64,000 nt of DNA from Vicinamibacterales bacterium (GCA_035510155.1 DATKHR010000379.1:5273-69272), one strand, 5' to 3'. Numbered from the stretch's first letter, positions 5,314-52,627 are shown. Notes: generated by a model not told the origin, from the letters alone. Translations and numbers: made by a program.

Positions 5314-5796
5314 TCACGAGTACCGCGCCGCAAGCAACGACACCGCCCGAACCGCGATGTTGGCATACACGCCCGCCATCGCGTCGTCAGCCATGATGCC
5401 GATACCGCCGTGGAGCCGTTCGAGGCGATTGGCAGGGTACGGTTTCACGATGTCGGCCGCGCGGAACACGAGAAACGCGAAGAGCGCTCCCCATCGCCCG
5501 ACCGGATTCATAAAGAGCGTGATGAGCATTCCCATCACCTCGTCGATCACCGCCTGGCCCGGGTCGGTGCGTCCGAAATGATGCTCGGCGACGCCGCTGC
5601 TCCACGATCCAATCACGAAGAGCACCAGGATCGTCACAGCGTGCGCGATCGCAGACGAGGGTAGAACGGCCCACAACGCGACCCCCGCTGCGGATCCGAA
5701 GGTGCCGGGCGCGAACGGGGCATAGCCAATGCCGCACGCGGTCGCGATGGTCAGCGCCGGGACTGTTCGGAGCGGATCCGGGATTCGGGATTTCAC
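5314..5796 (-). CDS. pgpA: phosphatidylglycerophosphatase A
   Basis: ORF 5314..5907(-) trimmed to GTG 5796, a GTGA overlap with the upstream stop. PgpA-like motifs GYAPFAPGTFGS, VIDEVMGM and IVKPYP. Codons 2-8 (KSRIPDP) are encoded by three heptamer units. Confidence 0.8.
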   Translation of the reverse strand: MKSRIPDPLRTVPALTIATACGIGYAPFAPGTFGSAAGVALWAVLPSSAIAHAVTILVLFVIGSWSSGVAEHHFGRTDPGQAVIDEVMGMLITLFMNPVGRWGALFAFLVFRAADIVKPYPANRLERLHGGIGIMADDAMAGVYANIAVRAVSLLAARYS

Positions 5797-6752
5797 ACGG
5801 ACGCGCGGACGACACGCGTGCCGGCGCAACGGTCGTGCAAGCCGCGATGATCGCGGCCGAAGAGGGTCAGGAACCCCAGGCCTGCCGGGATTGCCAGCAT
5901 AATCCACACAATCGTGCGGGTCATGGCCCGAGGGATATCGAGGGTGTCGGCAGGCTCCTCAGCCACGATGCGAATGCCAGCCACCATTTTGCCGAGCGTC
6001 TGGCCGCCCGCCGTGAAGGCGACGAGGTACCCGCCGTTCTGCACCACCAGGAATGCGATGAGCGGGACCTTCGGCAACATGCTGAGCTCTCCGGGCGAAA
6101 TGCCGCAGATCTGCATCGTGAAGTAGACGACGACGACGTCGACCGCAACGAGGATGAGGATGTCGATGAACGCCGCCGCCAGCCGCGCGGCGATGCCGGC
6201 GGGTTCAACTTCGTCAGCAGGCTCGACCAACCGCGGAGAGGGGCGCGCAACCACCGATCGACTCGCCAGGTCGCCTTCCGCACGTGGAGACGACACGACT
6301 CGGGCGGCGAGCGGAGACAGGGTGGCGCGCGGCGAGGACTGAAGGGCTTGGGCGTGGGACGAGATCTCGGGCGAGAGGTCGAGGGATTGTGCGCGGGGCT
6401 GCTCTGGACGCACGCGTGGCACTTCCGGCGTCGCCCGCCGCACAGCCAGTGGCGCTCGTGGCGGAGACGGCCGCGTGATCATCGGTTCGTGGTCGAGAGG
6501 CGCTGGGCCAAAGAGCGGCAGTTCGGCGTCCGTTCGCGCTGACCCCGGGTGCGACGCTGGTTCCAGGGGCACCGGCCGTGACGCCATCGCGGAGTCAACC
6601 AGCGACAGATCGTCGAGCGGACCGGGCGTTCGGCGATCGCCTTGCAGCGGCAGCTCGAGAAGCGGGGCAGGGGTCAGCGAGAAGTCGTATCCGCAATTGC
6701 GGCAACGCGCCACATCCTCGAAGCCGAGATAGCCGCATTTGGGGCACTTCAT
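5793..6752 (-). CDS. RDD-family membrane protein with N-terminal zinc ribbon
   Basis: ORF as given, 319 aa. It has a CPKCGY..CRNCGY zinc ribbon, a P-rich linker and a C-terminal multi-TM RDD-like domain (AARLAAAFIDILIL..GKMVAGIRIV). Confidence 0.7.
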   Translation of the reverse strand: MKCPKCGYLGFEDVARCRNCGYDFSLTPAPLLELPLQGDRRTPGPLDDLSLVDSAMASRPVPLEPASHPGSARTDAELPLFGPAPLDHEPMITRPSPPRAPLAVRRATPEVPRVRPEQPRAQSLDLSPEISSHAQALQSSPRATLSPLAARVVSSPRAEGDLASRSVVARPSPRLVEPADEVEPAGIAARLAAAFIDILILVAVDVVVVYFTMQICGISPGELSMLPKVPLIAFLVVQNGGYLVAFTAGGQTLGKMVAGIRIVAEEPADTLDIPRAMTRTIVWIMLAIPAGLGFLTLFGRDHRGLHDRCAGTRVVRASV

Positions 6753-7636
6753 GGCACGCGTCGTTCCGAACCGGACGCAGGCGGCGCCGGCATGGGCGTC
6801 AGCGCGAGGAGCTGGTGCTGAATCTCCGCACGAAGGCGGTCTGCCTCCTCCCTTTGCGGATCCGTCGCTCGAACCTGCGCCAGCACCGCGAGCGCCTCGT
6901 GAAGCCGTCCGCCGGCCATGAGCGCGCGGCCCCGCGCGAGCGCCATTTCACCTCGCCGCGGAAGCGGGAGTGTCAAGTCCTGCGGCACGGGAGCCACAGA
7001 GGGCGTGGAGGCTGGCTCAGCCAACGACAGGAACGGCAGCAGCAGCTGCCAGTCGGGTCTACTCGCGGAGACGATGTATCCCCCAAGCGCCAGGATGGCG
7101 AGGAGCGGCACCGCCACGAGCGTCAGCCGGACTCCGCGGCGAGATCGACGCGCCGATGAGTCAGCGTTGATCCGGGCGCGCCCCCGCTGTGGCGGCGAAG
7201 ATTCCTCCGCGGCCTGCGCCCCCGCTGAGGCGCTCCGGTTGATCCGCTCGAGGACCGCCAGCGCTTCGTCCGTCGGCGCGCCGCCTTCGATGGCCGCTTG
7301 CAGAAGCCGCCGGGCTTCGTCGCCCTCTCCGCGGTGAAATGCGGCGACTCCGTCGTGCAGCAACTCTTCCGACTGGCGTTGGCGCTCGGCGAGCGCGGTC
7401 CGCGCCCGTTCGATGTACGCGCGGGCGCGCGCATGATTGCGATCGAAAAAGAGCGCGCGCGTCCAGACGTTGATCGCCTGATCGTACTGCCCCGCGAAAT
7501 AGTGATCCAGACCGGTGAGAAGGAGCTGTTCGATTTTGGCGTCGCGATCGGCTTCCGAGGCGGCGCTGGCATCACCGCTCGCGTGAACATCGCGGCGCTG
7601 ATTCTCGGACAAAACACGCAGAGTATACTCGATCAT
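6749..7636 (-). CDS. membrane-anchored tetratricopeptide-repeat protein
   Basis: ORF 6749..7930(-) trimmed to ATG 7636 (MIEYTL). It has TPR-like helices (GLDHYFAGQYDQAINVWTRALFFD), one TM segment (LTLVAVPLLAILALGGYIV) and a C-terminal TPR-like part. ATGA overlap with the RDD gene start. The start is uncertain; in-frame ATGs also occur at 7645 and 7654. Confidence 0.55.
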   Translation of the reverse strand: MIEYTLRVLSENQRRDVHASGDASAASEADRDAKIEQLLLTGLDHYFAGQYDQAINVWTRALFFDRNHARARAYIERARTALAERQRQSEELLHDGVAAFHRGEGDEARRLLQAAIEGGAPTDEALAVLERINRSASAGAQAAEESSPPQRGRARINADSSARRSRRGVRLTLVAVPLLAILALGGYIVSASRPDWQLLLPFLSLAEPASTPSVAPVPQDLTLPLPRRGEMALARGRALMAGGRLHEALAVLAQVRATDPQREEADRLRAEIQHQLLALTPMPAPPASGSERRVP

Positions 7637-8534: not shown

Positions 8535-8559
8535 GTCGGTGGGGTCCGCGGATGGCTCT

Positions 8560-10083
8560 CTAGGCTGGCTCCGTCTCCTCATCGGCTCGACGCGAGGGCG
8601 CGATGCCGAACGCTTTCATCTTGCGGTACAAATTGCTGCGCTCGACGCCGAGGGCCTCCGCCGTGCGCGACATATTGCCCTGCTGCTCCGCCAGCGTCCG
8701 CAAGATGAGATCGCGCTCGAACCGGTCGCGCGCCTCGTGAAGCGTGAGCCGCTCGGCGCCCGTCTCAGGCACCGCCTGCGATGTATCAGCCGGGCTGCTC
8801 GAGTCGAGAAAGCTCAGGTCCGATGCCGCAATCCGATCCCCAGGCACCATGATCATGAGCCGCTCGATCACGTTGCGGAGCTCGCGGACATTGCCCGGCC
8901 ATGGGTATCGCTGAAGCGCGATCCGCGCGCCGGGCTCGAAGGTCTTGAGCCGCCGGCCGTCTTCCCGCGCGAGCTCCGACATGAAGTGATCGGCGAGGAT
9001 CGGAATGTCGTCCTGACGGTCCCTGAGCGGGGGCACGAAAATCGGAATGACATTGAGGCGGAAGTACAGGTCTTCGCGAAACTGCCCCGCGCGAATCTCC
9101 GACTGGAGGTCCTTATTCGTGGCCGCCAGTACGCGGGCGTCAACCTTGATGCGCGTGGTGCCGCCCACCGCCTCGAGCGTCTGCTCCTGCAGGACCCGCA
9201 GAACCTTCGCCTGTGTTTTCAAGCTCATGTCGCCGATCTCGTCGAGGAAGATGGTCCCTCCGTCCGCGGCCTCGAACTTGCCACGCCGATCCGCAACGGC
9301 TCCAGTGAACGCGCCGCGGACATGGCCGAACAGTTCGCTCTCGATGAGCTCTTCCGGAATGGCGGCGCAGTTGACTTCGACGAACGCGTGGTTGCGCCGC
9401 CGGCTCAGACCGTGAATGGTGCGGGCGACGAGCTCCTTGCCGGTGCCGTTCTCGCCGTAGATCAGCACGCGGCCGTTGGTCGGCGCCGCCATCGCCACCT
9501 GCTCCCGCAGCTGCCGCATGGCGTAGCTGTCCCCGACCATCGTCTGGGCGCGATCCACTTTCGCGCGCAGCGCGCGGTTCTCCTGCTCGAGGCGCCGCTG
9601 ATGGAGCGCGTTGCGGATGACCAGGACAGTCTTTTCCAGGGACAGCGGCTTCTCGACGAAATCGAACGCGCCCATTTTGATCGCCCGAACCGCCGACTCG
9701 ATATTGCCGTGGCCGGAGATGAGCACCACCTGGGCGTCCACCTGCCGTTCCCGCAGCCGCGCGAGCGTCGCGAGGCCGTCCATGCCCGGGAGCCATACGT
9801 CGAGCACGATAAGATCCACGGCGCCGCGCGTAACGCGCTCAAGGCACGCTTCGCCGCTCGACACGGCCTCGACGCCGTACCCTTCGTCGCGCAACACGCC
9901 GCTTAACGCGGACCGGACGCCGGGCTCGTCGTCAACGATGAGGATCGTGGGCTTCACTGGACCATCAACGGCGTGATCCGGGGCTTCGGATTCTGGATTT
10001 GGGGCGTGAGTCGGGATTCGGGATTCGGGATTCGTGCTCGCCGAAAGCTCGGAACCGACTGCCGAATCACTTGCGCTCCGCAA
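8560..10083 (-). CDS. sigma-54-dependent Fis-family response regulator (NtrC/NtrX-like)
   Basis: ORF as given. REC domain (ILIVDDEPGVR..LIVLDVWLPGMDG), AAA+ activator (GENGTGKE, GAFTGA, RVLAATN) and Fis HTH (NMSRTAEALGVERSNLYRKM). TTG 10083 has GGAGG 6 nt upstream, but codons 1-42 are encoded by repeat element A. An alternative in-frame GTG 9957 starts right at the REC domain. Confidence 0.85.
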   Translation of the reverse strand: MRSASDSAVGSELSASTNPESRIPTHAPNPESEAPDHAVDGPVKPTILIVDDEPGVRSALSGVLRDEGYGVEAVSSGEACLERVTRGAVDLIVLDVWLPGMDGLATLARLRERQVDAQVVLISGHGNIESAVRAIKMGAFDFVEKPLSLEKTVLVIRNALHQRRLEQENRALRAKVDRAQTMVGDSYAMRQLREQVAMAAPTNGRVLIYGENGTGKELVARTIHGLSRRRNHAFVEVNCAAIPEELIESELFGHVRGAFTGAVADRRGKFEAADGGTIFLDEIGDMSLKTQAKVLRVLQEQTLEAVGGTTRIKVDARVLAATNKDLQSEIRAGQFREDLYFRLNVIPIFVPPLRDRQDDIPILADHFMSELAREDGRRLKTFEPGARIALQRYPWPGNVRELRNVIERLMIMVPGDRIAASDLSFLDSSSPADTSQAVPETGAERLTLHEARDRFERDLILRTLAEQQGNMSRTAEALGVERSNLYRKMKAFGIAPSRRADEETEPA

Positions 10084-10186
10084 TCCTCGCCTCCCCGCTC
10101 ACGAGTCCCAATCCCCGATGACGAATCACGAATCCATCCGAATCCCCAACCCCAATCCCGAATCCCGAACCCCGAATCCGGACTGC
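9973..10186. repeat. heptamer-periodic inverted repeat element A (GGGATTC-type arm, about 63-nt spacer, GAATCCC-type arm)
   Basis: Read directly. Positions 9973-10036 carry tandem GGATTCG/TCGGGAT-like 7-mers. Positions 10100-10186 carry the complementary CGAATCC/GAATCCC-like 7-mers. The element abuts the kinase stop at 10187. Confidence 0.85.
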
Positions 10187-12508
10187 CTAGCAAGGTAACT
10201 CAATCGTGAACCGCGTCCCGTGTGGCGCGTTGCCCCCCACGTCGATATTTCCCCCGTGCTCGGCGATGATCCGTCGGACGATGGCCAAACCCAGGCCGCT
10301 GCCGCGCCGCTTGGTCGAATAGTACGGCAGGAACAGCTTCTCGCGCTCTGCCGGGGGGATCCCGGGCCCGTCATCGGACACCATGACGCGAACGATCGCA
10401 TTCGACGGATCGAGCTCGGTTTCGACCAGGATTTCGCCGCGCCGCTCCATCGCCTCGATCGCGTTGTCCACGAGATTGATGACGACGCGGCGGATCTGTT
10501 CGGGATCCAGTCGAACCAGCGGCACGTCCGGAGCGAAGCGCCGATCGATGTGCACGTCGGCAAAAATCCCGTCGTAGAGCGCCACGGTGTCCGTGATGAG
10601 CTGCGCGAGATCGGTCGGCACCGTCCGGGGCGACGGCATACGTGCGAACTGCGAGAATTCGTCGACGAGCCCTTTGAGCGACTCCACCTCGCCGACGATC
10701 GTCGACGTGCATTCGTCGACGAGCGCGCGCGCCTGGGCGGACGCACCGGAGAAATGGCGCCGCAAGCGCTCGGCGGACAGCTGGATGGGCGTCAGCGGGT
10801 TCTTGATCTCGTGCGCGAGCCGCCGCGCGACCTCGCGCCACGCGGCGACCTTCTGCGCGCGGATGAGCGGCGTGACATCGTCGAGCACGACGACCACACC
10901 GTCAGGCGTGCCGCTGTCGCCTGAGAGCACTGTCGCCGCGACAGCGAGGTGCCGTTCCTGCCCCTCACACGGGATCGCAAACTCGTGGGCCGCGGATTCC
11001 GACTTGCCGCGCGATGCAGCCGCCACGAGCTTGAGCAGCGGTTGAAGGTCCGGGCGATCGAGCACGACCATCGCCGGCTGGCCGATGATCTCCCGGTTCA
11101 GCCCCAGCAGCCGCGCGGCGGAACTGTTGATCGTCGTGATGGCCCCTGCCGCATCGAGCGACACGACGCCGGTGGAAATACGCTCCAGGATCGTCTCGAT
11201 GTAGCGGCGGCGCCCTTCGACCTCGACGTGCTTGCGCTCGAGGGCGATCGTGCCGCGCTCGATGCGGCGCCGGCTGGTCGCGAGCTCGCGTGCCATGGCG
11301 TTGAACGCTTCGACGAGCGCGCCGAACTCGTCGTTGCTCTGCGGCTCCACGCGCTGGTCGAGCCGCCCCGCGCCGATTTCGCGGGCCGCGGCCGCCAGGG
11401 CCTGCACGGGTCTGGTGATCCGCTTCGCGATGTAGAGACCCATCCACGTCGCGCCCACGAGGATGAGCAAGGTGGTCATGAGGAAGAACGAGAGATAGAC
11501 GCCGGTCAGCGGCCGCTTCAGCACGCGCAACTGGTTGTAGTTCTCGAACGCCTGTGTCATCCGCCTGGAACGCGTCACCAGGTCGCCTTTGAGGTAGTCC
11601 GTGATCACGACGACGCCCGTGGCCTGGCCGCCCGGTGACACGATGGCGGCCGCGGCATGCAGTAAATCGCCGCCGTCACCCAAAGGCTCGATGGATCGGG
11701 TCACCGGCCGCGCGGAAGGGGCTCCCGGCGCGGTCGACGCCGCGTCGAGCGCCTGCGCCGCGAGGCGGTCCGCCGCCACGCGGCTGTAGCCGGGCGGCAA
11801 CGCCGGGGCTGCCACGTCCACTACTGGCTCCAGATGTTTCGCCGACCCCGATCTCGACGCGACCCGATAGACGTCGACCATCTGGACGCTTTGTGATGCC
11901 ACATCGGGGGTGAGCCGATCGCGGATCAGTCGAAGATCACTTGCCGCCAAATCGGCGGGTGCCAGAGAACGGGCGATGCGTGCTGCCTGATCGCTCAAGA
12001 CGCTCTGACGGTCCGCGTAGTAGTCAGCCGCGATCTTGTTCGCCGACGAGAGAATCTCGTCCATCGGCGCGTTGAACCACCGGTCGACGCTGGTGCGAAT
12101 CAGCTCGCTTCCGACGATGAGCACGAGTACTGCCGGAACGAGCGTCATGCCGAGCAGCAGGACAACCAGCTTTGCACGAAAACGGGCGAACGGCAGCGCC
12201 TGCCGTCGCTCGACGAACAGCTTGACGATGTTGCGCGCCAGCACGAATACGAGCGCAGCCAGCATCGTGAGGTCAGCCGCTGAGAGGCCGTACAGAACGA
12301 ACTCGCCCAGGAAGTCAAAAGAGAACCGGGACGAGTTGGCGGTCGCGAGGAGCGTGACGAGCAGCAGCAGCAGGATGACGATGCCGGCGAAGATCAGGCG
12401 GGGATTGTCGCGGAACGGACGTCGGCGCGGGCGGCCGACATCCGCGGATCCACCCGCCTCTGCCCGAGTGGCCATGGTCGCGCTGACGGGCATCGCTGGT
12501 TCAGCCAT
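10187..12508 (-). CDS. ntrY: NtrY-like sensor histidine kinase (TM-HAMP-PAS-HisKA-HATPase)
   Basis: ORF as given, 773 aa. N-terminal TM segments, HAMP-like region, PAS, H-box RRLAHEIKNPLTPIQLSAERL, and HATPase motifs DDGPGIP and GSGLGLAIV. Confidence 0.75.
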   Translation of the reverse strand: MAEPAMPVSATMATRAEAGGSADVGRPRRRPFRDNPRLIFAGIVILLLLLVTLLATANSSRFSFDFLGEFVLYGLSAADLTMLAALVFVLARNIVKLFVERRQALPFARFRAKLVVLLLGMTLVPAVLVLIVGSELIRTSVDRWFNAPMDEILSSANKIAADYYADRQSVLSDQAARIARSLAPADLAASDLRLIRDRLTPDVASQSVQMVDVYRVASRSGSAKHLEPVVDVAAPALPPGYSRVAADRLAAQALDAASTAPGAPSARPVTRSIEPLGDGGDLLHAAAAIVSPGGQATGVVVITDYLKGDLVTRSRRMTQAFENYNQLRVLKRPLTGVYLSFFLMTTLLILVGATWMGLYIAKRITRPVQALAAAAREIGAGRLDQRVEPQSNDEFGALVEAFNAMARELATSRRRIERGTIALERKHVEVEGRRRYIETILERISTGVVSLDAAGAITTINSSAARLLGLNREIIGQPAMVVLDRPDLQPLLKLVAAASRGKSESAAHEFAIPCEGQERHLAVAATVLSGDSGTPDGVVVVLDDVTPLIRAQKVAAWREVARRLAHEIKNPLTPIQLSAERLRRHFSGASAQARALVDECTSTIVGEVESLKGLVDEFSQFARMPSPRTVPTDLAQLITDTVALYDGIFADVHIDRRFAPDVPLVRLDPEQIRRVVINLVDNAIEAMERRGEILVETELDPSNAIVRVMVSDDGPGIPPAEREKLFLPYYSTKRRGSGLGLAIVRRIIAEHGGNIDVGGNAPHGTRFTIELPC

Positions 12509-15024: not shown

Positions 15025-15236
15025 TCGCCGACAGACTCGAAAAGCTGGTCGAGGAAATGGTCGACCGCGGGGTGCAGTTCAACGATGCGGTCCGCGAGTT
15101 CGAGAAGCGCTTCATCGCGCGCGTGCTCGGCCAGTGCGACGGCAGCTTGACAAAAGCCGCCTGCACGCTCGGCATCCATCGCAATACGCTCACGCGCAAG
15201 ATGGAGGAATACAAGATCAAAAAACGGGCAGGATAG
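15021..15236 (+). CDS. small Fis-type helix-turn-helix DNA-binding protein
   Basis: Tail of ORF 14463..15236(+) from GTG 15021, a GTGA overlap with the purC stop. Sequence VIADRLEKLVEEMV..GSLTKAACTLGIHRNTLTRKMEEYKI. Confidence 0.65.
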   Translation: MIADRLEKLVEEMVDRGVQFNDAVREFEKRFIARVLGQCDGSLTKAACTLGIHRNTLTRKMEEYKIKKRAG

Positions 15237-15310
15237 GCGGGACTGGCAGGAGAGGCGGGAAAGGCCGGAGGGCGCCCTGCCGTAGCCGCTATCCCGGCCC
15301 TTCGTCCCCG

Positions 15311-15337
15311 CTAGCACTCGACGATTGACACTGCTAG
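15311..15337 (+). promoter_or_regulatory. CIRCE-like HrcA operator 1 (imperfect)
   Basis: CTAGCACTC-N9-CACTGCTAG compared with consensus TTAGCACTC-N9-GAGTGCTAA. It overlaps the -35 of the groES promoter. Confidence 0.6.
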
Positions 15338-15353
15338 GAGTCCCTACTATAGT
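15325..15353 (+). promoter_or_regulatory. sigma-70-type promoter of groES-groEL
   Basis: TTGACA (15325-15330), a 17-nt spacer, then TATAGT (15348-15353), about 80 nt upstream of the groES ATG. Confidence 0.65.
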
Positions 15354-15379
15354 TAGCAGTCGTTCTGCATGACTGCTAA
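15353..15379 (+). promoter_or_regulatory. CIRCE-like HrcA operator 2 (perfect inverted repeat)
   Basis: TTAGCAGTC-N9-GACTGCTAA. This is the consensus with a compensated C/G swap. It starts at the last base of the -10 and covers the expected transcription start. Confidence 0.75.
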
Positions 15380-15433: not shown

Positions 15434-15745
15434 ATGAACGTCAGACCGCTTCACGACCGCATCATCGTGCAACGACTCGAAGAAGGGGAACAGAAGATTG
15501 GCGGAATCATCATCCCCGACACCGCCAAGGAAAAGCCCCAGCAAGGCAAAGTCATTGCCGCCGGCAACGGCAAGGCGAAAGACGACGGCAAGCGCATCCC
15601 GCTCGACGTGAAAGCGGGCGACACCATCCTGTTCGGCAAGTACTCCGGGCAGGAAATCAAGATTGACGGCGAGGAGTACCTCATCATGCGCGAAGACGAG
15701 GTCCTGGCCGTGGTGGAGAGCGGCGACACCAAGAAGAAAAAGTAG
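15434..15745 (+). CDS. groES: co-chaperonin GroES
   Basis: ORF as given, 103 aa: [40 protein letters not shown]. Confidence 0.97.
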
Positions 15746-18656: not shown

Positions 18657-19115
18657 CTAGACCCGTCCGGTCCAGGCACCAATTGCGGCGTTGCCGCCAC
18701 CGTACGAGTGCAGGATGGCCAGGGCATCGGCGGCCCGCGGCTCGGATCTGATCGCCACGAGCACACCGCCCCGCCCGACCAGCGTTTCGAAGATCCGGCC
18801 GTCATGCGGCTGAAAGCCGACACGACGCATCGCCGCTGCAAGGCCCAGCTTCGACAGGTCCTGCGACACGCCTTGTAACGCGCCGAGCAGCCGGCCCCGC
18901 CCGATTACAGCGCCCACACCAGCCAATTCGAACCGGTCACCAGCGTTGCCGAAGGTGCTCTCCAGCAACCGAGCGGACTCGGGGCTCTCCTTGGCGAGCA
19001 GTGACAGCGCTTCCTTCGGGAATCCTCCCTTCTTGAGCGCGTCGATCGCCTTCCCCGCCCAAGCGGCGTCCTGAAACACTGCAACCGTGAAGAGACCGCT
19101 CTCGACGTCAATCAT
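18657..19115 (-). CDS. hypothetical protein (two short alpha/beta modules resembling general-stress YflT/DUF1269-type domains)
   Basis: ORF 18657..19259(-) trimmed to ATG 19115 (MIDVESGLFTVAVFQD). The 48 upstream codons are encoded by repeat element B. The functional assignment is weak. Confidence 0.45.
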   Translation of the reverse strand: MIDVESGLFTVAVFQDAAWAGKAIDALKKGGFPKEALSLLAKESPESARLLESTFGNAGDRFELAGVGAVIGRGRLLGALQGVSQDLSKLGLAAAMRRVGFQPHDGRIFETLVGRGGVLVAIRSEPRAADALAILHSYGGGNAAIGAWTGRV

Positions 19116-19117: not shown

Positions 19118-19227
19118 TCCTGGCTCGCTTCTCGTTGCTCCGGGCTCGCGGCTCGCTTCTCGTGGCTCGTAGCTCGTGGCTGGCGGCTCGTTCGAGTCCC
19201 GAGCTACGAGTCCCGAGTCCCGAGTTG
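19118..19227. repeat. heptamer-periodic inverted repeat element B (TCGNNGC-type arm followed by AGTCCCG-type arm)
   Basis: Read directly. A strict 7-nt phase runs over about 10 units, then switches to complementary units. By hand pairing, 19159-19190 pairs with 19193-19224 (23 WC + 4 GU of 32). Confidence 0.85.
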
Positions 19228-23126: not shown

Positions 23127-25046
23127 TCAGAGCACGATGCGCGAGTCGCCCGACCGCCGGGTGACCCGTTCCCTGTCCAGGTACTCGAGCAGGGGAATCG
23201 CAAACTTCCGCGTCACGCCATACCGCTCCTTGAACGTGGCAACGTCGATCCGCGCCGGCGCCCCTTCCCTTTTCATCGCCGCCACGCTGGCCTTCAACTG
23301 CTCGAGTGCTTCTTCATGGAACCAGAGACTGTCGAGGCGCACGAGCACTCTCTGCCGCTGGAGGAGCCGGAGCATGCGGTCGGCGACCGCGCCGCTAACG
23401 CCCAGCTCCACGGCGAGCGCCGGCGGATCCGGCGGCTTCAGGCTGGCGGCGCGGTAAGCGCGCTCGATAGCCTCCTTCGCGCGTGATTCCTCCGGCGACA
23501 ACGCGAGCTGATGGGTCGACAACGCGACCCGATCGCGCAAGGTAATCTTCCCGGCGCTCACCAGCTCCGCGAGAGCGTGCTCGAATACCCGTTGGTCGCC
23601 GCGACGGAAGCGTTGCGCCCGCAGCTCCTCGCGCGACACGCCCTCCGACAACGGCTGCGCGCGATGATGTTCGGCCAGTGCGGAGAGGATCGATTCCTCC
23701 AGGCGCACAAGCACGGCACGGTCGACGAGTACCCCCTCGGCCGCGGCGATCAGGCCACCCTCGACCAGCTCGCGGACGCGCACCTCAAGCGCGGCGGGAT
23801 CGACGCCGACCCTGCTCACGAGCGCCGATATGGGGAGTCCTGCAGGACCGGCATCGGCAACGAGCACCGCCGCTGCCCTTCGCTCCGACGTGCCGCGATC
23901 GGTTGAAGCCCCGTCGAACCCGAGCGCTCGGCAGCGGTCGGTCGCGGCCGCAGCGCGGATGCGATCGCGCGGCGGAAACGGATCGAGCACGACGCCGCCT
24001 GCAATCGTCACAGGCGGCGAGTAGGCCCGGAGAATGTATCGGTCGCCACGCGCAAGAACGGCCGGCGACTCGAGCCGGAGACGCGCGCATCCGTGGCCGC
24101 CCGGCTGGACCGTCGTCGCTTGCGGATCAATGATGCCCACGCGGCCCATCACTTCCGCCGTACCCTGATGAAACCGGACACGCGCGCCATGCTGGAGCGG
24201 CTTGGCCTCGCCGAGCACCTCAATCGCGACGTCGACGACGCGAGTCTCAACAAACGCATCCGGCGTCACCAGACTCTGTCCGCGCGCGATCTCGTGAACG
24301 TCGATCCCGGCCAGGTTCACTGCGCACCGGTGCCCCGCGGTCGCCTCCGCAAACTTCAGGCCGTGCACCTGGACGCCCCGGACCTTCACGGGGCGCTGTC
24401 CGGGCGCGATCACCAGCTCCCGCTCCGCTGCGACTGTTCCGGAAACCAGCGTGCCGGTGACGACCGTCCCAAATCCCTTCATCGAAAAGACTCGATCGAC
24501 CGGCAGCCGTGTCACGGTCGTCTGCGCGCGGCCGCGCACCCGCGCGCTCGCCTGCATCAGCGCCGCGCGCAGGTCATCGAGGCCGCTTCCGGTCCGCGCC
24601 GACACCGGGACGATCGGGGCGCCGTCGAGAAACGACCCCGCCACGAGCTCTCGCACCTCGAGCCGCGCCAGCTCGGTCATCTCCGCGTCGGCAAGATCGG
24701 CTTTCGAGAGCGCCACCAGCCCGGCCGGCACACGCAGCAGCCTGCAGATCTCAAAATGCTCGCGGGTCTGCGGCATCACCGACTCGTCCGCGGCGACGAC
24801 GAGAACGACGAGGTCGATGCCGCCGACGCCGGCCAGCATGTTCTTGACGAATCGCTCATGGCCCGGAACGTCGACGAACGCCAGATGCAGGCCCTCGACT
24901 GTCGTATGGGCGAAACCGAGATCGATGGTGATGCCTCGCGCCTTTTCCTCCTTGAGCCGGTCCGGATCGGTGCCGGTCAACGCCTGCACGAGCGCGCTCT
25001 TGCCGTGGTCGATGTGGCCCGCCGTTCCGACGATGACTGATTTCAT
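23127..25046 (-). CDS. selB: selenocysteine-specific translation elongation factor SelB
   Basis: ORF as given, 639 aa. GTPase domain [23 protein letters not shown], and a long C-terminal winged-helix region ending [18 protein letters not shown]. Confidence 0.9.
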
Positions 25047-37318: not shown

Positions 37319-38797
37319 ATGAAGCGAGCGACTACGGTTCTCCTCCTCATTGCCGCCATCGGGGCCGGGGCCGGCGCGTTTTACTACAGGCACAACGGCA
37401 ACGAGGTTCAGGTGAATACCTCCTCGGTTTCGCGTGGCGAAATCGTCGACACCGTCGGCGCCACAGGGACGCTGCAGGCAGTGGTCACCGTGCAGGTCGG
37501 GAGTCAGGTGTCGGGCACCATCAGCTGGCTGGGGGCCGACTTCAATTCAATCGTCAAGAAGGGCCAGGTGATCGCCAGACTCGAGCCGTCCTTGTTCGAG
37601 GCGGAGGTGGCGCAGGCCAAGGCGAACCTGATCAAGTCCCAGGCGGACGTCGAGCACAACAAAGTGGCGTTGACCGACGCCCAGCAGAAGTACGCGCGCA
37701 CCAAGGAGCTCGCTGCGAGGAACCTGCTGCCGCAGAGCGATCTCGACGCGGCGAAGATCGCGGTGGACTCGGCGGCGGCGATGTTGCGGTCGTCCGAAGC
37801 GACCGTCGAGCAGGCGAAGGCCACGCTCAACCAGAACCAGGTGAACCTCGAGCACTCCATTATCGAGGCGCCGATCGACGGCATCGTGACCCAGCGCAGC
37901 GTCGACGTCGGCCAGACGGTGGCCGCGAGCATGCAGGCGCCGACGCTGTTCATCATCGCCGCAGACCTGACCAAGATGCAGGTCAACGCGAACATTGACG
38001 AAGCGGACGTGGGGCGCATCCGCCCGCATCAACACGTGACGTTCCGCGTGGACGCGTATCCCACCGACGTCTTCGAAGGCACGGTCGCGCAAATCCGCTT
38101 ACAGCCGGTCGTCGTGCAGAACGTCACGACTTACGGCACCGTCATCGACGTGCCGAACGCGGAGCTGAAGCTCAAGCCGGGGATGACCGCGAACGTCAAG
38201 GTCGAGATTGCCAGGAAGAGCGACACGCTGCGCATCCCGAACACGGCACTGCGCTTCAGGCCGACGACAGACATGTTCACGGCGCTGAACCAGGCCATCC
38301 CGCCGGAGGTTCAGTTCGCAGGCGGCGGGCGGACCGGACCGCGTGGCCCGGGTGGGTCGGGTCAGTCGAGTGGGTCGGGTGGGTCGGGTCGGTCGAGTGG
38401 AACGGGCGCGTCCAGTGCTTCCCCAACGCTCGCGACGCCCCAGCCGCCTCAGGTGGCCAAAAGGCCGTCCGAGCTGCTCAAACCCAAATACGGCAGCATC
38501 CAACAGGCCCAGACGATTGACGCGTTGTTTGCGCCCCTGCCGACGGTGGAAACGCGCGGGCGGGTGTGGTTGTTCATCGATCATCAGCTCAAGCCGGTCA
38601 ATCTCCGCCTGGGGATTACCGATGGCACCAACACGGAAGTCTTGAGCGGAGAGCTGCAGGACAAGACAGAAGTAGTCACGAGCATCACCGGCCTCGGCTC
38701 GACCCGGGGGACCGCCAACACAGGTACAGGTAACCCGTTGATGCCGGGAGGGCGTGGCCCGGGCGGATTCGGCGGCGGAGGCCGAGGCGGCCGATAA
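37319..38797 (+). CDS. efflux periplasmic adaptor (HlyD/MacA-like) with G/S/P-rich C-terminal insertions
   Basis: ORF as given, 492 aa: [31 protein letters not shown]..coiled coil..[10 protein letters not shown]. Confidence 0.85.
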
Positions 38798-40817: not shown

Positions 40818-40819
40818 GC

Positions 40820-47848: not shown

Positions 47849-47850
47849 CG

Positions 47851-49259: not shown

Positions 49260-51782
49260 CTACTCGGCGCGAAGGGTCGAGAGCGGCTTGTTCCGCAGGA
49301 CGTCGAGACTCGAGAGCACGCCGATGGCGGCCACGAGCATCGACGTGAGGACGACCCCGGCGATGTGCTCGCTCGGGAAGATCCGCCACGGGATCTCGAG
49401 CGCGTATCGGCTGACGCCCCACGTGAGTACGATAGCGCCCAGCGAGCCGACGAGCCCCGCGAGCGATCCGAGGACTCCATATTCCAACAGGAGCATCCGG
49501 GCGATTGTGCGCGTATTGGCGCCCAGCGTCTTGAAGACGGCGGCCTCGTACAGCCGCTGGAACTTTGTCATCGCGACGGCACCGATGAGAATCAACGCCC
49601 CGCTGAAGAGCACCAGACCGCCCACCACCGTGATGGCCAGCGTCACCTTGGACATCACGTCGCGAACGGTCTCGAGAACCTCGCGAAAGTCAATGACCGA
49701 GACATTGGGGAACTTCTCGACGAGATCGTGTTGGAATCGGGCGCGCTCGGTCGGGTCCTGCGGCCCCTTGATCGGCGAGACGAAGGTCTGCGGTACGCGA
49801 TCGAGCGAACCCGGCCGGAAGACAAACATGAAGCCGCCGTTGCGCGATTGGCGCCACTCGACGTCGCGAACGCTCGTCACCCTCGCACTGACCGACTGCC
49901 CGAGGATATCGAAGCGCATCGTGTCCCCGACGTGGATGTTGAACCGCTCGCGAATGCCTCGCTCGATCGAGACTTCCGGGTCCGTCGACGGACCGTTCCA
50001 GAACGCCCCTTCCCGCACCCGCTCGTTCGCCTCGAGGTGGTCACGGTAGGTGATGGTGTATTCACGCGCCAACGACCCGCGCCGGCGAACGTCCTCGACC
50101 CCCTCTATGTCCGTCTGGCGCCCCGACACCCCGGTCACGCGCGCGCGCATCACCGGAATGAGCTGGATTTCCCCCGCCCTGCTGGCGACAAATGCGCGCA
50201 CCCCGTCAGCCTGCCTTGGCTGGATGTCGAGCAGAAACATGTCGGGAGCGTCCTCGGACACCTGGAGCGAGAACTCGCTCAACAGCGTCGCCTGCAGCGA
50301 ACGCACGCCGACGATGAAGAAGGCGCCGAGACCGACCGCCAGCAGAATCACTCTCGTTTGGTTGCCCGGCCGCGATAGGTGCAGCACCGCGTGCCGCAGC
50401 GGAAACGAACGCGAGCTCGCCAGAGGCGACACGAGCGCCACGAGCGCCCGCCCGGCCAGCTGCAACACGAAGGCGAGCCCGGCGAAGCTCGCGCACACGA
50501 TGAGGCCGATTCTGAGCGACGCGGCCTGCCAGGCCGTGATCGCCACGAGCCCGGCCGCGATGGCCACCAGCGCCGCCACGCCGAGCCAATCTCGATGGCG
50601 CCGGACGGCTTCGTCCCGTAGCAGCAGCGATGGCCTGATGAACCTCACCTGCAGCAGCGGCGCGAGCGAGAACAGCAGCGACACGAGCACGCCGATGCCG
50701 ATGCCCTGAAGGGCTGCGCTCCACGCCACACCGTAATGCGCCTGTGCAAAGAGAGACGATGAAGATCCGAGCGCGAGCGGAATCGACGCGACCGCGGCGG
50801 CCGCGAGCGCGACGCCGAGCAGGCTGCCCGCGAGGCCCAGCGCGACGACTTGCAGAATGTAGACGGCGATGATCTGCGCGCTTCTCGATCCCACGCATTT
50901 GAGCACGGCGATGCTGCGAATCTTCTGCAAAATGAACACGCGGGTGACGCTCGAGACGGCGATCCCTCCGAGGATGACGATGACCAGGCCGACCAGACTG
51001 AGATAGTTCTCTGCGCGGTCGAAGTCGCGCCCGACCTGATCCTCGTTCGAGCGGTACGACCGGACGTTGATGAATTCGTCGCGCAACTCCCGTCGGAGCG
51101 CCCTTACCAGCGGATCGATGCGATCGTCGGGGACTTTCGCCTGCAGTTGCCGCCCCGCCCGGCTGCCGAAAGCGAGAAGGCCGGTCGACGGCAGATCCGC
51201 ATAGTCGATCAACATCCGCGGACCGAGGCTGAAACCGCCCACGCCGCGCCCGGGCTCCCTTGCGAGGACAGCCCGGATCGTGAACGCCGTCTGTCCGATG
51301 ACAATCGAATCGCCCACGTTGACCCCGAGCGCGGTCAGCAGTTCGGGCCGTACGATTGCCCCATGTCCTTCGACGAGAGCATGCCCGAACGGCTGATCGC
51401 CCTGCAGCGTCAGGACTCCATACAGTGGAAACCCGGCCTGTACGGCCCTCAACTCCACCATTTTCGCGATCGGCCGCCCGTCGGCCGGCCGCGCCATCGT
51501 CGGCGTCTCGATCGTTTCTGTGCGCGCCGTCGCGCCAGCCTCAGCGAGACGCCGATCGATCGTCGATCGCGCCAGCTCCGACCACTCGCGATTGGTCCCG
51601 ATCGCCACATCGGCGGCGATTAGTGCCTTCGCCTCGGTGCCGAACACGACGCGCGCGCTCTGAATGACCGACCGCAGCGCGACAATGGCGGCGACGCCGA
51701 CGGCGATACAGACGAAGAAGAACAAGAGGCGGCGCCACGAGGCGCGCGTCTCGCGAACGGCCATGCGAAGGACGAATCTCAT
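49260..51782 (-). CDS. ABC transporter permease with duplicated FtsX domains (YbbP-like)
   Basis: ORF as given, 840 aa. Two FtsX-type 4-TM modules. Confidence 0.85.
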   Translation of the reverse strand: MRFVLRMAVRETRASWRRLLFFFVCIAVGVAAIVALRSVIQSARVVFGTEAKALIAADVAIGTNREWSELARSTIDRRLAEAGATARTETIETPTMARPADGRPIAKMVELRAVQAGFPLYGVLTLQGDQPFGHALVEGHGAIVRPELLTALGVNVGDSIVIGQTAFTIRAVLAREPGRGVGGFSLGPRMLIDYADLPSTGLLAFGSRAGRQLQAKVPDDRIDPLVRALRRELRDEFINVRSYRSNEDQVGRDFDRAENYLSLVGLVIVILGGIAVSSVTRVFILQKIRSIAVLKCVGSRSAQIIAVYILQVVALGLAGSLLGVALAAAAVASIPLALGSSSSLFAQAHYGVAWSAALQGIGIGVLVSLLFSLAPLLQVRFIRPSLLLRDEAVRRHRDWLGVAALVAIAAGLVAITAWQAASLRIGLIVCASFAGLAFVLQLAGRALVALVSPLASSRSFPLRHAVLHLSRPGNQTRVILLAVGLGAFFIVGVRSLQATLLSEFSLQVSEDAPDMFLLDIQPRQADGVRAFVASRAGEIQLIPVMRARVTGVSGRQTDIEGVEDVRRRGSLAREYTITYRDHLEANERVREGAFWNGPSTDPEVSIERGIRERFNIHVGDTMRFDILGQSVSARVTSVRDVEWRQSRNGGFMFVFRPGSLDRVPQTFVSPIKGPQDPTERARFQHDLVEKFPNVSVIDFREVLETVRDVMSKVTLAITVVGGLVLFSGALILIGAVAMTKFQRLYEAAVFKTLGANTRTIARMLLLEYGVLGSLAGLVGSLGAIVLTWGVSRYALEIPWRIFPSEHIAGVVLTSMLVAAIGVLSSLDVLRNKPLSTLRAE

Positions 51783-52627
51783 TGCGGATTGCGGACTGCG
51801 GATTCCACCCCAGGGCGGCTGCCGCCCTGGGGGCCCCGGGATTGCGGACTGATTGCAGGTTGTGGATTGATAGCCGATTGCGGATTGCGGTTTGCCGACT
51901 GGGGATTGGCCGAGAACCGCGCTCCAGAATCCGCAGTCCGCACTCCGGGATCCGCAATAGAAAGGGTGCTGTCGATAACGCGCCCGTCGCGCAGGACGAG
52001 CGTGCCGTCGGCCATCGCCGCCAGCTCCGCGTCATGCGTCACGAGGACGATCGTGCTTCCCCGCCGGGCATGCACGGTCCGCAAGAGATCCATGATGTGC
52101 CGGCCGTTGCTGCTGTCGAGATTGCCGGTCGGCTCGTCCGCCAGGACGATCGATGGATCGTTGGCCAGGGCGCGCGCGAGCGCGACGCGTTGCTGCTCGC
52201 CGCCTGACAGCTGCGACGGGTAGTGATGGGACCGTCCGCGCAATCCGACCTCGTCGAGCAGCGCTTCCGTTCGCCGGCGCGTATCGCCGACGCCGGCGAT
52301 TTCCATGGGCACTGCGATGTTCTCGTAGGCCGTAAGCGACGGAATCAGGTGAAAGAACTGGAACACGAAGCCGATCTTCTCGCCGCGCAGCTTCGCGAGC
52401 GAGTCCTCGTCGAGGCGCGTGATGTCGACGCCGTCAATGACGACCTGCCCCGACGTCGGCGCATCGAGGCCGGCAATCAGCCCGAGCAAGGTGGACTTGC
52501 CGCTTCCCGACGGCCCGACCACGGCGGCAAACTGACCCTTGGGAATCTCCAGTGTCAACGGATGCAGAATCGTGAGCGGTTCGCTGCCGCTCATGACGGT
52601 TTTCGAGACCTCGCGCAACTCGATCAT
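51779..52627 (-). CDS. ABC transporter ATP-binding protein (YbbA/LolD-like) with repeat-encoded C-terminal tail
   Basis: ORF 51779..52684(-) trimmed to ATG 52627, an ATGA overlap with the upstream stop. Contains [24 protein letters not shown] and [10 protein letters not shown]. The last 60 or so codons are encoded by element C. Confidence 0.88.
   Translation of the reverse strand: MIELREVSKTVMSGSEPLTILHPLTLEIPKGQFAAVVGPSGSGKSTLLGLIAGLDAPTSGQVVIDGVDITRLDEDSLAKLRGEKIGFVFQFFHLIPSLTAYENIAVPMEIAGVGDTRRRTEALLDEVGLRGRSHHYPSQLSGGEQQRVALARALANDPSIVLADEPTGNLDSSNGRHIMDLLRTVHARRGSTIVLVTHDAELAAMADGTLVLRDGRVIDSTLSIADPGVRTADSGARFSANPQSANRNPQSAINPQPAISPQSRGPQGGSRPGVESAVRNPQ
51783..51958. repeat. heptamer-periodic inverted repeat element C (ATTGCGG-type units, internal perfect hairpin, CCGCAAT-type units)
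   Basis: Read directly. ATTGCGG/ACTGCGG-like units run from 51783. The hairpin is CCCCAGGGCGG-ctg-CCGCCCTGGGG (51808-51832). The complementary arm AATCCGC AGTCCGC ACTCCGG GATCCGC AAT lies at 51928-51958. Confidence 0.85.

Follow-up and report, generated by a model that had tools for sequence, protein, structure and literature searches.

Four gene junctions in 64,000 nt of DNA from a Vicinamibacterales metagenome-assembled genome (GCA_035510155.1, DATKHR010000379.1:5273-69272), a stretch called the window here, carry runs of degenerate 7-nt tandem units, and the question that they raise is what kind of element these runs are, how they came to lie between genes and whether they serve the genes beside them. 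The source is a soil organism with 65% G+C. A sequence-only reading had proposed a single family, self-complementary and placed exactly on gene boundaries, and the core of its description holds: the units read as claimed, period-7 tandem arrays are detected by TRF at all four loci (Table 1), and at the three long loci (2, 3 and 4) an array is combined with its own reverse complement, so that folding as a hairpin is possible. These three loci are the strongest inverted repeats in the window, and their predicted folding exceeds that of shuffled sequences, with -113.6 kcal/mol (z -3.9), -95.1 kcal/mol (z -5.9) and -61.7 kcal/mol (z -3.9), z ranging from about -3.0 to -5.9 overall across the long loci. 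Among periods that are not multiples of three, 7 alone gives a strong self-match in the window. In 171 kb comprising the window and relatives picked by protein homology, there are 17 arrays of period 7, 7 of period 8 and 0 to 4 of each other period, versus approximately none in shuffled sequences, and two patterns of two heptamer units have 12 and 7 matches where 0.65 and 0.81 are expected. The 8-nt arrays in the lineage have the same architecture as the 7-nt arrays. Elements number 24 in 247 kb of window and relatives, approximately one per 10 kb, with at least four unrelated unit types inside 64 kb and more than ten among relatives, and in some genomes a unit family is present more than once: loci 1 and 2 share GGGATTC, L131 has CACGAAAC twice and L153 has GATGGCT twice (L numbers denote close strains and other relatives). 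The relatedness that had been claimed between units of different loci is convincing for GGGATTC and GGGACTC and unconvincing for the remainder. Further copies are plentiful in relatives, and GGGATTC also occurs in many other genomes, spread over Lysobacterales, Acidobacteriota, Planctomycetota and Bacteroidota, in which an inverted partner lies no more than 400 nt away from 53 of 182 GGGATTC-like arrays. Slippage alone is insufficient to explain the recurrence of the same units across phyla. The assignment of the four loci to one class, heptamer-periodic, self-complementary and confined to gene junctions, is supported.

Table 1. Repeat loci of the window and the genes adjoining them, in positions of the window.
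Feature	Position	Strand	Remarks
pgpA gene	5314..5796	-	codons after GTG start with locus 1 array
Locus 1, solo 3-unit GGGATTC-type array	5774..5794	-	GGATCCG GGATTCG GGATTTC
RDD-family protein gene	5793..6752	-	stop overlaps locus 1 array and pgpA GTG (GTGA)
Sigma-54-dependent response regulator gene	8560..9957	-	downstream of locus 2
Locus 2, hairpin element	9973..10186	-	inverted arrays; fills 229-nt kinase-regulator spacer
G-quadruplex (G4) motif (G3+N1-7 x4)	10144..10173	-	transcribed strand, just after kinase stop
NtrY-like histidine kinase gene	10187..12508	-	upstream of locus 2
152-aa gene	ATG 19113-19115	-	flanks locus 3
Locus 3, imperfect hairpin	19118..19227	.	GGCTCGY array 19118-19191, then CGAGTCC array 19193-19227; 130-nt divergent spacer
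FAD-dependent reductase gene	ATG 19246	+	flanks locus 3
FtsX/MacB-type permease gene	49260..51782	-	ATG overlaps ATPase stop
ABC transporter ATPase gene	51779..52627	-	called at 282 aa in seven strains
Locus 4, ATTGCGG-type arm, interior, CCGCAAT-type arm	51781..51958	-	inside 3' tail of ATPase ORF
Small perfect G+C-rich hairpin	51808..51832	-	CCCCAGGGCGG-CAG-CCGCCCTGGGG, within an arm of locus 4

Arrays of this kind avoid the interior of genes. In the lineage, 6 of 36 lie deep within predicted ORFs versus 76% under random placement, and in other GC-rich genomes 41 of 198 do so versus an expected 70%. Those in the window are 0 to 18 nt from a start or stop codon and flanked by housekeeping genes, but contact of every copy with a start or stop, which had been claimed, is not universal, since the locus 2 array begins 15 nt away from the regulator GTG (9957), and locus 3 is separated from its two flanking ATGs by 2 and 18 nt. 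Two loci are inside coding sequence, locus 1 at the 5' end of pgpA and locus 4 in the 3' tail of the ATPase. Confinement to junctions stands, but rather than being placed exactly on gene boundaries, the elements are better described as occupying short spacers, or dispensable tails of proteins, whose counterparts in relatives have near zero length. They do account for the ORFs called through these regions. The units of the four loci are stop-free, but this is the expectation by chance (P = 0.72 per unit at the base composition of the window), and it is not general in the lineage, where 19 of 36 arrays are stop-free, so avoidance of stop codons is rejected as a designed trait. A canonical G4 motif is present in locus 2 and in none of loci 1, 3 and 4, and most units of the lineage (ATTGCGG, GGCTCGY, CACGAAAC, GAACTCA) have no G3 tract; therefore G4 formation is not a common property and is rejected as the unifying feature. 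No match at the gathering score of Rfam was found in the whole window, and searches of each locus by E-value gave only sub-threshold hairpin look-alikes; a scan for tRNA and tmRNA found none. Scans of loci 2 to 4 for promoter and terminator consensus sequences found none and no T-tract terminator, so these loci are not intrinsic terminators.

The individual loci differ in their relation to the flanking genes. At locus 1, which taken alone is weak (three units only), the array constitutes codons 2 to 8 of pgpA, the stop codon of the RDD-family gene (TGA, 5793-5795) overlaps the start codon of pgpA (GTG, 5794-5796) as GTGA, and the Pfam PgpA domain starts at residue 16 and not earlier; the array of the close strain L128 differs, and the orthologous junction in L151, L133 and L153 has none. 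Locus 2 lies between the kinase stop (TAG, 10187-10189) and the regulator start (GTG, 9955-9957), and consists in mRNA order of a 5' arm of GGGATTC/GGGGTT-type units (10100-10186), a non-repeat middle (approximately 10035-10099) and a 3' arm of GAATCCC-type units (9973-10034). Read in window order, a perfect (GGGATTC)x3 at 10013-10033 lies within a degenerate array that begins at approximately 9973, and GAATCCC-type units reach 10186, the last of them ending at approximately 10184-10186 and abutting the kinase stop. Close strains differ at locus 2 by a 6-nt deletion (L127) and two substitutions. Orthologous kinase-regulator junctions span from overlap to 139 nt, with different arrays or none: the genes overlap in L143; L134, L145 and L151 have array-free spacers of 7, 23 and 53 nt, respectively; and unrelated arrays are found in L131 (CCACGAAA), L133 and L140 (CGCAGAG), L147 (AAGGGCC) and L153 (GATGGCT). 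Occupancy of this junction in four of eight independent relatives, versus approximately 10% of junctions overall (P ~0.005 by a rough binomial estimate), suggests either that the junction is a preferred target or that a structure is selected there. The frame that ends at the TGA overlapping the regulator start is open along the full length of the element in the window, in L131 and in L133; by our own estimate, the chance of an open coupled frame in the cases at this junction is approximately 0.03 jointly.

At locus 3, strain L001 has two additional units (+14 nt), and in relative L134 approximately 22 nt separate the same two flanking genes, as measured from the ends of tblastn alignments. Locus 4 constitutes approximately the last 57 codons of the ATPase, downstream of the conserved LRDGRVIDSTLS end, and the frame runs through it as far as the TGA in the ATGA (51779-51782) where ATPase stop and permease start overlap; this frame is preserved in five of five lineages compared. 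The element is absent from L157, L158, L161 and L162, of which the permeases are 80-86% identical and the ATPases have 233-239 aa versus 282 aa here. In relative L160, the interior is inverted, the locus differs in length by 42 nt, and the opposite arm carries the small G+C-rich hairpin as its reverse complement, two base pairs of which have changed in a compensatory manner. Compensatory changes keep both the arms and this small hairpin paired, and selection on structure would yield the same result. A pattern search found no second copy of the small hairpin. Six sequences of locus 4 from the window and close strains are equal in length and one substitution apart, at a substitution rate equal to that of the flanks; because the element is in a translated tail, changes at a flank-like rate and would be unfolded by ribosomes, tolerance fits it better than a required RNA structure. 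The ATPase tail of L159 was considered as a decayed hairpin, which its folding (z -1.3) does not support.

The elements of the window are young, fast-changing additions to junctions that in relatives overlap (GTGA or ATGA), are a few bases long or hold unrelated 7- or 8-nt arrays. Units are added to and lost from arrays in steps of 7 nt: indels of about unit size separate strains with flanks more than 99% identical, as with the +14 nt of L001, the -6 nt of L127 and the 42-nt difference to L160. Most of the three to nine sequences of each locus from the window and close strains have the same length. Changes in one arm are mirrored in the other, as in L133 (931-1057), where an ATTGAGG variant and ATTT inserts are found in both arms, and as in L132 and L131, which have a matched unit change in both arms. 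Whole hairpins also recur at different junctions, with 89% identity over 81 nt, loop included, between the kinase-regulator junction of L131 and the post-NrdR junction of L133, and an identical 32-nt arm at two junctions of L133. Three dispersed copies that were aligned have no conserved termini and no target-site duplication, and the elements of the window have nothing in common with other loci beyond array sequence, and no non-repeat core. A general rule that the elements form bridging ORFs fails, as those of L158 and L159 have stops in all frames.

Hairpins built of tandem heptanucleotides have precedents. The STRR heptanucleotide repeats of cyanobacteria, reportedly described by Mazel et al. 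in 1990, are, by later accounts, intergenic, with several heptamer families per genome and hairpin copies between cistrons such as hupS-hupL, for which a role in transcript stability or translational coupling is suggested but unproven. The present elements resemble STRR in having several heptamer families in one genome and hairpin copies between cistrons, and differ in unit sequences and phylum; to our knowledge, flipping and read-through have not been described for STRR. REP/BIME of enterobacteria and pseudomonads are extragenic imperfect palindromes, often in inverted pairs, that are transcribed in operons and can act as mRNA structure elements. The sequence-only reading did not recognise the elements of the window as REP/BIME or CRISPR, and they are not of the former type, because their arms are tandem 7-mers, there is no shared palindromic unit with a conserved head, and the loci resemble each other in array units only; nor are they CRISPR, which have repeats of 24-48 nt with unique spacers, whereas these units are 7 nt long, head to tail and without spacers. 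MIRUs, located between cistrons, were discovered in a two-component operon; they are reported to insert at start codons in such a way that their ORF stays coupled, at -4 nt, to the gene downstream. Similarly, the ATGA overlap of locus 4 is in frame and elements at the kinase-regulator junction keep a frame open to the regulator GTGA or ATGA, but a MIRU unit measures tens of bases and is no self-complementary microsatellite, while the units here have 7-8 nt and their bridging ORF is not general. Rickettsia palindromic elements are inserted in frame in genes and translated as an extra peptide, as is the tail at locus 4, but form families of approximately 150 bp with conserved peptides within genes, whereas this tail is of low complexity and at the extreme 3' end. 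In comparison with MITEs, the arms act as inverted repeats and flanking duplication is missing from the three aligned copies; near-identical dispersed copies exist in L131 and L133, not among the window's own elements. In contrast to SSRs of phase variation, unit number is not hypervariable in most strains and the neighbours are not surface or virulence genes.

A close resemblance in layout is that to G-rich repeats of Xanthomonas (GGGAATC, or (GGGANTN)n) and Nostoc (GGGGA(C/T)T), which are tandem 7-nt repeats, approximately 90% intergenic, often arranged as convergent inverted pairs 0-50 bp from ORF ends and sometimes over the stop codon, with length varying among close relatives, ordinary metabolic genes as neighbours and no function found (Rehm et al. 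2015, PMC4692102). Tandem 7-mers, inverted pairs and placement at ORF ends are features of both, and locus 2 has the same layout, the G-rich arm being on the coding strand just after the stop. The differences are that the unit here is GGGATTC and not GGGAATC, that the host belongs to Acidobacteriota, that 8-nt versions exist, that most units lack G3, and that the closest outgroups lack the elements, whereas 83% of Xanthomonas repeats are common to two species (PMC4692102); GGGNATC quadruplex repeats in the narrow sense of Rehm et al. (G3 in each of at least four units) are matched only at 10144-10173. Long SSRs with units of 5-11 nt, of which heptanucleotides are the commonest class, are enriched in large high-G+C genomes of non-pathogens, with polymerase slippage proposed as the cause (Mrazek, Guo and Shah 2007, as summarized in PMC4679880 and PMC4692102); this genome fits the pattern of enrichment, but long SSRs as portrayed in those summaries are a statistical class of direct repeats without inverted pairing, dispersal of whole hairpins or particular behaviour at junctions. 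TAACTGA repeats of Beggiatoaceae, cyanobacteria and Bacteroidetes, patchily distributed across phyla, are likewise intergenic heptamer arrays a few bases from start codons, those upstream of start codons in Beggiatoaceae having been proposed to bind protein (PMC4679880), but are nearly always direct, have one dominant unit and contain stop codons. The novelty implied by the sequence-only reading is therefore not upheld, as heptanucleotide long SSRs, STRR and inverted (GGGANTN)n pairs had been described; in the literature searched, the exact repeat strings of the loci appeared in no paper, searches with single heptamers returned only noise, and no description of such heptamer elements for the phylum Acidobacteria was found. 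The loci are probably hairpin-forming heptanucleotide, at times octanucleotide, tandem-repeat elements, the Acidobacteria counterpart of STRR and of the Xanthomonas GGGAATC inverted repeats.

The favoured explanation is that mutation is the main source of the elements, which would not be dedicated regulators but survive as tolerated, self-propagating "junk". It draws on the excess of period 7, the hairpins, the empty junctions of relatives, the indels, the mirroring of arms, the flip, the dispersed copies and the confinement to junctions; the lack of promoter, terminator or Rfam signals, the housekeeping neighbours and the same features without a function in Xanthomonas and Nostoc are also counted for it. 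Units would be gained and lost through replication slippage, complementarity of the arms would be maintained by template switching or conversion across the hairpin, recombination between arms could flip the interior, and some copy mechanism would seed new junctions. Purifying selection would then remove copies that damage genes, such that those remaining fill spacers or extend dispensable protein ends with start/stop coupling kept. Transcribed within operons, the long imperfect hairpins would probably affect, as a by-product, the decay of the mRNA or how strongly the flanking genes are expressed relative to each other. The open frame kept at the kinase-regulator junction and at locus 4 argues against plain "junk" and indicates that constraints of expression shape the elements.

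A tentative alternative is that the elements are non-autonomous mobile elements similar to REP, MITEs or MIRUs, whole hairpins being inserted at start/stop junctions by a transposase in trans (for example, of RAYT/IS200 type) and later remodelled by slippage. The near-identical hairpins with their loops at different junctions of relatives, the unit families repeated within one genome, the MIRU-like insertion at NTGA overlaps with coupling at -4 and the in-frame extension of a protein would all be accounted for, but the aligned copies lack conserved termini and target-site duplications, the elements of the window resemble other loci only in array sequence, unit diversity is far above that of known REP or MITE families, and the bridging ORF is not general. 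Selection for cis-regulatory structure, in which hairpins (and G4 for GGG units) set mRNA stability, RNase processing, pausing or translational coupling, is unlikely. REP/BIME of enterobacteria work as structures of this kind. Strong predicted hairpins that immediately follow stops and precede starts, the presence of elements of differing sequence at one two-component junction in half of the relatives, pairing preserved by compensatory changes, the stability and coupling roles suggested in the STRR accounts for hairpins such as that of hupS-hupL, and a G4 motif of the transcribed strand immediately downstream of the kinase stop, which matches the strand and position bias in Xanthomonas (PMC4692102), are consistent with such selection. 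However, the closest outgroups (L145, L134, L143, L157, L158, L161, L162) have no element and no apparent replacement, units and lengths vary freely between loci, three of four loci lack a G4 motif and none of those scanned has a T-tract terminator, ribosomes would melt the hairpin of locus 4, and the best-studied case, that of Xanthomonas and Nostoc, gave no function. Equally improbable, as a broader proposal, is that palindromic microsatellite hairpins are a distinct cross-phylum self-propagating intergenic element: whole hairpins with arms of tandem 7-8-mers would be copied to start/stop junctions, preferentially kinase-regulator junctions and NTGA overlaps, and then altered by slippage, arm-to-arm copying and flipping, with selection keeping an open frame that preserves coupling as in MIRUs and with G4 incidental to a subset. 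It is very unlikely that the arrays are binding sites, the 7-nt period reflecting the length of the site bound by a DNA- or RNA-binding protein specific to the lineage (for example, a nucleoid protein or one of S1, Csp or CsrA type): identical heptamers at several loci and across phyla, arrays adjoining start codons and the precedent hypothesis for TAACTGA repeats would suit it, but the diversity of unit types in the window and relatives and the shared architecture of 8-nt arrays do not, and the inverted layout favours self-pairing over single-strand binding. An assembly artefact or an ordinary conserved coding repeat, which the long ORFs crossing all four loci might suggest, is refuted by identical locus sequences in more than 15 independent ENA and JGI assemblies, by a period that is not a multiple of 3 and by orthologues and orthologous junctions without the segments.

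Heptamer hairpin elements are thus of a kind already known from Xanthomonas and cyanobacteria, and what is new, as far as the literature searched shows, is their occurrence in Acidobacteriota. The class, previously known from cyanobacteria, Xanthomonas and a few other groups, is extended to one of the most abundant soil phyla. As most units in this lineage are incapable of forming G4, the leading functional idea is weakened, and hairpin geometry and periodicity are indicated instead. The independent filling of one two-component junction, the flips, the copying of whole hairpins and the frame-preserving read-through to an ATGA overlap provide material for tests of origin and function. In the annotation of GC-rich metagenome-assembled genomes, such elements lengthen ORFs and displace the starts and protein ends that are predicted.

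Direct reading of the window agrees with the sequences and coordinates that the sequence-only reading had assigned to four heptamer loci, and period-7 arrays are reported at each of them by Tandem Repeats Finder (see table). In a sliding self-match scan of the window, seven alone among the periods that are not multiples of three gives a strong self-match. In a 171-kb set comprising the window and relatives fetched by protein homology, which is therefore not selected for repeats, there are 17 primitive tandem arrays of period 7 and seven of period 8, compared to zero to four of any other period and approximately none in shuffled sequences. Two-unit patterns of GGGATTC and ATTGCGG match the window 12 and seven times, versus 0.65 and 0.81 expected, respectively. 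The three long loci, which combine an array with its reverse complement, are the three strongest inverted repeats of the whole window, and the hairpins proposed for them are borne out by predicted folds of -113.6, -95.1 and -61.7 kcal/mol, each more stable than dinucleotide shuffles (z = -3.9, -5.9 and -3.9, respectively); the opposite strand of locus 3 (z = -3.0) and locus 2 folded as DNA (z = -3.7) give the same result. The heptamer loci are a real feature.

Period-7 arrays (Tandem Repeats Finder) and other features of the window and of relatives (L-numbers, sequence stretches from other assemblies)
Feature	Sequence	Position	Context
Locus 1 array	window	5774-5792	overlaps RDD-family gene stop; codons 2-8 of pgpA
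Locus 2 arrays	window	10011-10034, 10138-10179	229-nt spacer, NtrY-like kinase stop (10187-10189) to sigma-54 response regulator GTG (9955-9957)
Locus 3 arrays	window	19143-19190, 19193-19225	most of the 130 nt that separate divergent starts at 19115 and 19246
Locus 4 arrays	window	51781-51804, 51876-51908	within 3' tail of ABC ATPase ORF
G-quadruplex motif	window	10144-10173	locus 2
18-nt tandem repeat	window	15227-15274	at or just past end of small HTH_8 gene, upstream of CIRCE-like sites
CIRCE-like inverted repeats	window	15311-15337, 15353-15379	upstream of groES (ATG near 15434)
SelB-type elongation factor gene	window	23127-25046	
9/27-nt tandem repeat	window	38349-38406	within HlyD-family membrane-fusion gene (37319-38797)
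Junction elements (examples)	L133	931-1057, 2157-2187, 7065-7155, 11613-11736, 12618-12722, 14943-14972	
TTAGGGC, AGGGCTT, AGGGATT arrays	L151, L158, L159	632-665, 17779-17843, 18617-18652, respectively	abut stop or start codons
Additional ~200-aa ORF	L131, L133	2916-3536, 7035-7664, respectively	nrdR-kinase interval
Two-unit proto-repeat	L158	9960-9986	end of ATPase tail, right before permease start
Divergent spacer	L134	1077-1100	between 152-aa gene and FAD-reductase gene

The window belongs to the metagenome-assembled genome of a Vicinamibacterales bacterium (Acidobacteriota). Neighbouring genes were assigned from gene calls in independent assemblies and from Pfam scans; the GroEL, kinase, permease and NrdR of the window exactly match NCBI HUC78214, HUC78208, HUC78243 and HUC78209, respectively. 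The GTG of pgpA overlaps the RDD-family stop as GTGA, and the PgpA domain begins only at residue 16, after the codons contributed by locus 1. The ATPase ORF spans all of locus 4 and ends at the TGA of an ATGA with which the permease gene begins. From these distances, the assertion that every copy touches a start or stop codon holds as proximity (0-18 nt) but not as universal contact, and two of the four loci lie formally within coding sequence.

The junction of the kinase and regulator genes, the site of locus 2, was compared in nine lineages with 54-100% identity to a neighbouring membrane protein. The two genes overlap in L143, and are separated by repeat-free spacers of 7 nt in L134, 23 nt in L145 (the closest outgroup, with 90% identity of the regulator) and 53 nt in L151. 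The same junction holds four CCACGAAA units and, after a loop, four TTTCGTGG units in L131, seven and a half direct AAGGGCC units in L147, GATGGCT units with inverted partners in L153, and CGCAGAG/CTCTGCG in L133 and L140. At the site of locus 4, the ATPase has 282 residues in the window species and seven close strains, versus 233-239 in relatives with 80-86% permease identity, where it overlaps or abuts the permease start. L151, L133 and L153 have no locus 1 array at the corresponding junction. At orthologous junctions, then, the elements are missing or other arrays stand in their place, so the loci are not conserved coding or regulatory sequence, and by this comparison the elements are young additions at gene junctions. 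In L134 the divergent genes that flank locus 3 are only ~22 nt apart as judged by tblastn alignment ends; therefore, either their promoters lie within adjacent coding sequence or the starts are misannotated. In L158, which has no locus 4 element, the ATPase tail ends in the two units CTGCGGA CTGCGCA, of the type expanded in the window, and these may be the seed or the remnant of such an array. Piecewise alignment of kinase, regulator, NrdR and reductase in different frames suggests that the L153 assembly (ERZ1370068 contig) contains many frameshift errors, so repeat lengths and frames from it are unreliable.

Among strains with flanking proteins more than 99% identical, locus 3 is longer by 14 nt (two units) in L001 and locus 2 is shorter by 6 nt in L127. 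Per site, substitution and indel events amount to ~1-3% at locus 2 and locus 3 versus 0.3-0.6% in 1.6 kb of flanks, and locus 4 changes at the flank rate, with a single length across six sequences. In L160, with a permease 94% identical, the locus 4 element is 42 nt longer than in the window and its interior is flipped. In the window a small hairpin, CCCCAGGGCGG-CAG-CCGCCCTGGGG, lies with its flanking sequence in the 3' arm; in L160 this stretch lies in the 5' arm, reverse-complemented along with its loop and carrying two compensatory base-pair changes. The arms of an element copy one another: an ATTGAGG variant unit and ATTT inserts are mirrored between the arms of an L133 element (931-1057), and a unit change is matched across both arms in L132 and in L131. 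In relatives, whole hairpins also recur from one junction to another: the L131 kinase-regulator element shares 89% identity with the L133 element that follows NrdR, across 81 nt that include the loop; the two copies within L131 share 95% identity across 38 nt; and L133 has an identical 32-nt arm at two junctions. The window's own elements have only array-type similarity to all other sequence compared.

Further copies, which the sequence-only reading had anticipated, are plentiful. The window and its relatives contain 36 arrays in 24 elements (~1 per 10 kb over 247 kb), and just six of the 36 arrays have a midpoint deeper than 60 nt within a predicted ORF, compared to 76% under random placement; three of these six come from longest-ORF artefacts or from read-through in the window. 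In a collection of species-representative genomes, more than 120 stretches contain (GGGATTC)x3, whereas a 21-mer would be expected ~0.3 times by chance in 596 Gb (a rough estimate). By record title, the 120 matches listed belong to Lysobacterales/Xanthomonadales (60), Acidobacteriota (24), Planctomycetota (7), Bacteroidota (7) and others (22). Among these listed matches, an inverted partner lies no more than 400 nt away from 53 of the 182 GGGATTC-like arrays, and in the GC-rich loci 41 of the 198 arrays with period 7 sit deep in ORFs versus 70% expected. L133 is denser than the window: its 16.5 kb include six or seven elements at junctions, among them a GAACTCA/AGTTCTC hairpin, rich in stop codons, between convergent genes. 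The TTAGGGC, AGGGCTT and AGGGATT arrays of other relatives contain G3 tracts and resemble telomere repeats. Where the window has a 6-nt gap between nrdR and the kinase gene, L131 and L133 have an additional ORF, the first ~45 codons of which are an 8-mer hairpin element (CACGAAAC / GTTTTCGT) encoding a basic and then a hydrophobic stretch that resembles a signal peptide.

The observation that the units contain no stop codon in any frame is true of the window's four, but a random tandem heptamer at the window's base composition has a probability of 0.72 of being stop-free in all six frames, so four of four is unremarkable; across the lineage the property holds for 19 of the 36 arrays, and stops occur in GAACTCA, AATCTGA, TTAGGGC and GATGGCT units, among others. 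The reading frame at coupled junctions does look constrained by the evidence of the ATPase tail, which from the conserved LRDG motif to ATGA measures 212, 254, 77, 83 and 224 nt in five lineages, lengths that are equal modulo three despite growth of the element in steps of 7 nt (chance ~0.01, roughly estimated). Between kinase and regulator, the reading frame closed by the TGA over the regulator start is open through the entire element in the window, L131 and L133, with an in-frame TTG or GTG overlapping the kinase end, which is only suggestive of constraint on a bridging frame (joint chance ~0.03, a rough estimate); the elements of L158 and L159 have stops in all frames. Of other signals, a G-quadruplex motif (G3N1-7 x4) occurs at just one of the four loci, on the transcribed strand, no promoter or terminator consensus was found at loci 2-4, and no Rfam family matches the loci.

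On balance, the elements are probably mutation-driven and tolerated. The indels, the mirrored arms, the flip, the dispersed copies, the confinement to junctions and the retained frame are observed, and for these events we infer mechanisms as follows: slippage would be the source of gain and loss of units, copying across the hairpin would keep the arms complementary, recombination between arms would flip the interior, and some process would now and then seed whole hairpins at new junctions, giving dispersed copies. Selection would purge any copy that damages a gene, leaving elements confined to junctions, where they would occupy spacers or lengthen dispensable protein ends without breaking start/stop coupling. 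The elements would be transcribed within operons and folded in vivo. The chief evidence against such tolerated, mutation-driven growth is that the kinase-regulator junction is occupied in four of eight independent relatives, versus ~10% of junctions overall; compensatory changes point in the same direction, and together they keep alive both a true mobile element, which is a doubtful explanation, and a selected structural role, which is unlikely.

Of the two CIRCE-like inverted repeats in the window, one is CTAGCACTC-N9-CACTGCTAG and the other, a perfect one, is TTAGCAGTC-N9-GACTGCTAA; both probably serve the groES-groEL operon as operator sites for HrcA. The nearby 18-nt repeat (GGCAGGAGAGGCGGGAAA, 2.7 copies) is not of the heptamer type. 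The repeat in the HlyD-family gene (CGGGTGGGT) is in frame, encodes a Gly/Ser-rich stretch and also scores as a plus-strand G4 motif at 38372-38388. The SelB-type selenocysteine elongation factor gene, recognized by Pfam SelB winged-helix domains and gene calls for an identical region, indicates that UGA is probably decoded as selenocysteine in some genes of this organism.

Heptanucleotides are the commonest long simple-sequence repeats of many bacterial genomes, notably large ones with high G+C, and polymerase slippage is proposed as their origin (Mrazek et al. 2007, as summarized in PMC4679880 and PMC4692102). Two Xanthomonas genomes contain 186 and 183 (GGGANTN)n repeats, of which 89-93% are intergenic. 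Convergent inverted pairs account for 70-75 of the repeats, which are concentrated 0-50 bp from ORF ends and sometimes lie over the stop; they differ in length between species, are mostly transcribed and adopt G4 structures in vitro, but a function was not found (Rehm et al. 2015, PMC4692102). Cyanobacterial STRR heptamers form hairpins at the hupS-hupL interval, with a role in transcript stability or coupling suggested but unproven. TAACTGA arrays of Beggiatoaceae lie right upstream of starts (PMC4679880). Start-codon insertion with an ORF coupled at -4 is reported for MIRUs, and Rickettsia palindromic elements insert into genes in frame. The window's loci have the defining features of the heptamer-repeat class and lack those of REP/BIME and CRISPR, as had been supposed, and of MIRU units and contingency loci; three of the four fall outside a narrow quadruplex definition. 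The searched literature contained neither the GGGATTC tandem string nor a link between Acidobacteria and heptamer repeats. The class is already known, and its occurrence in Acidobacteriota is not described in that literature; also of use are the units that lack G4 potential, the 8-mer forms, the repeated and independent occupation of one junction, the flipped interior, whole-hairpin copying and frame-preserving read-through.
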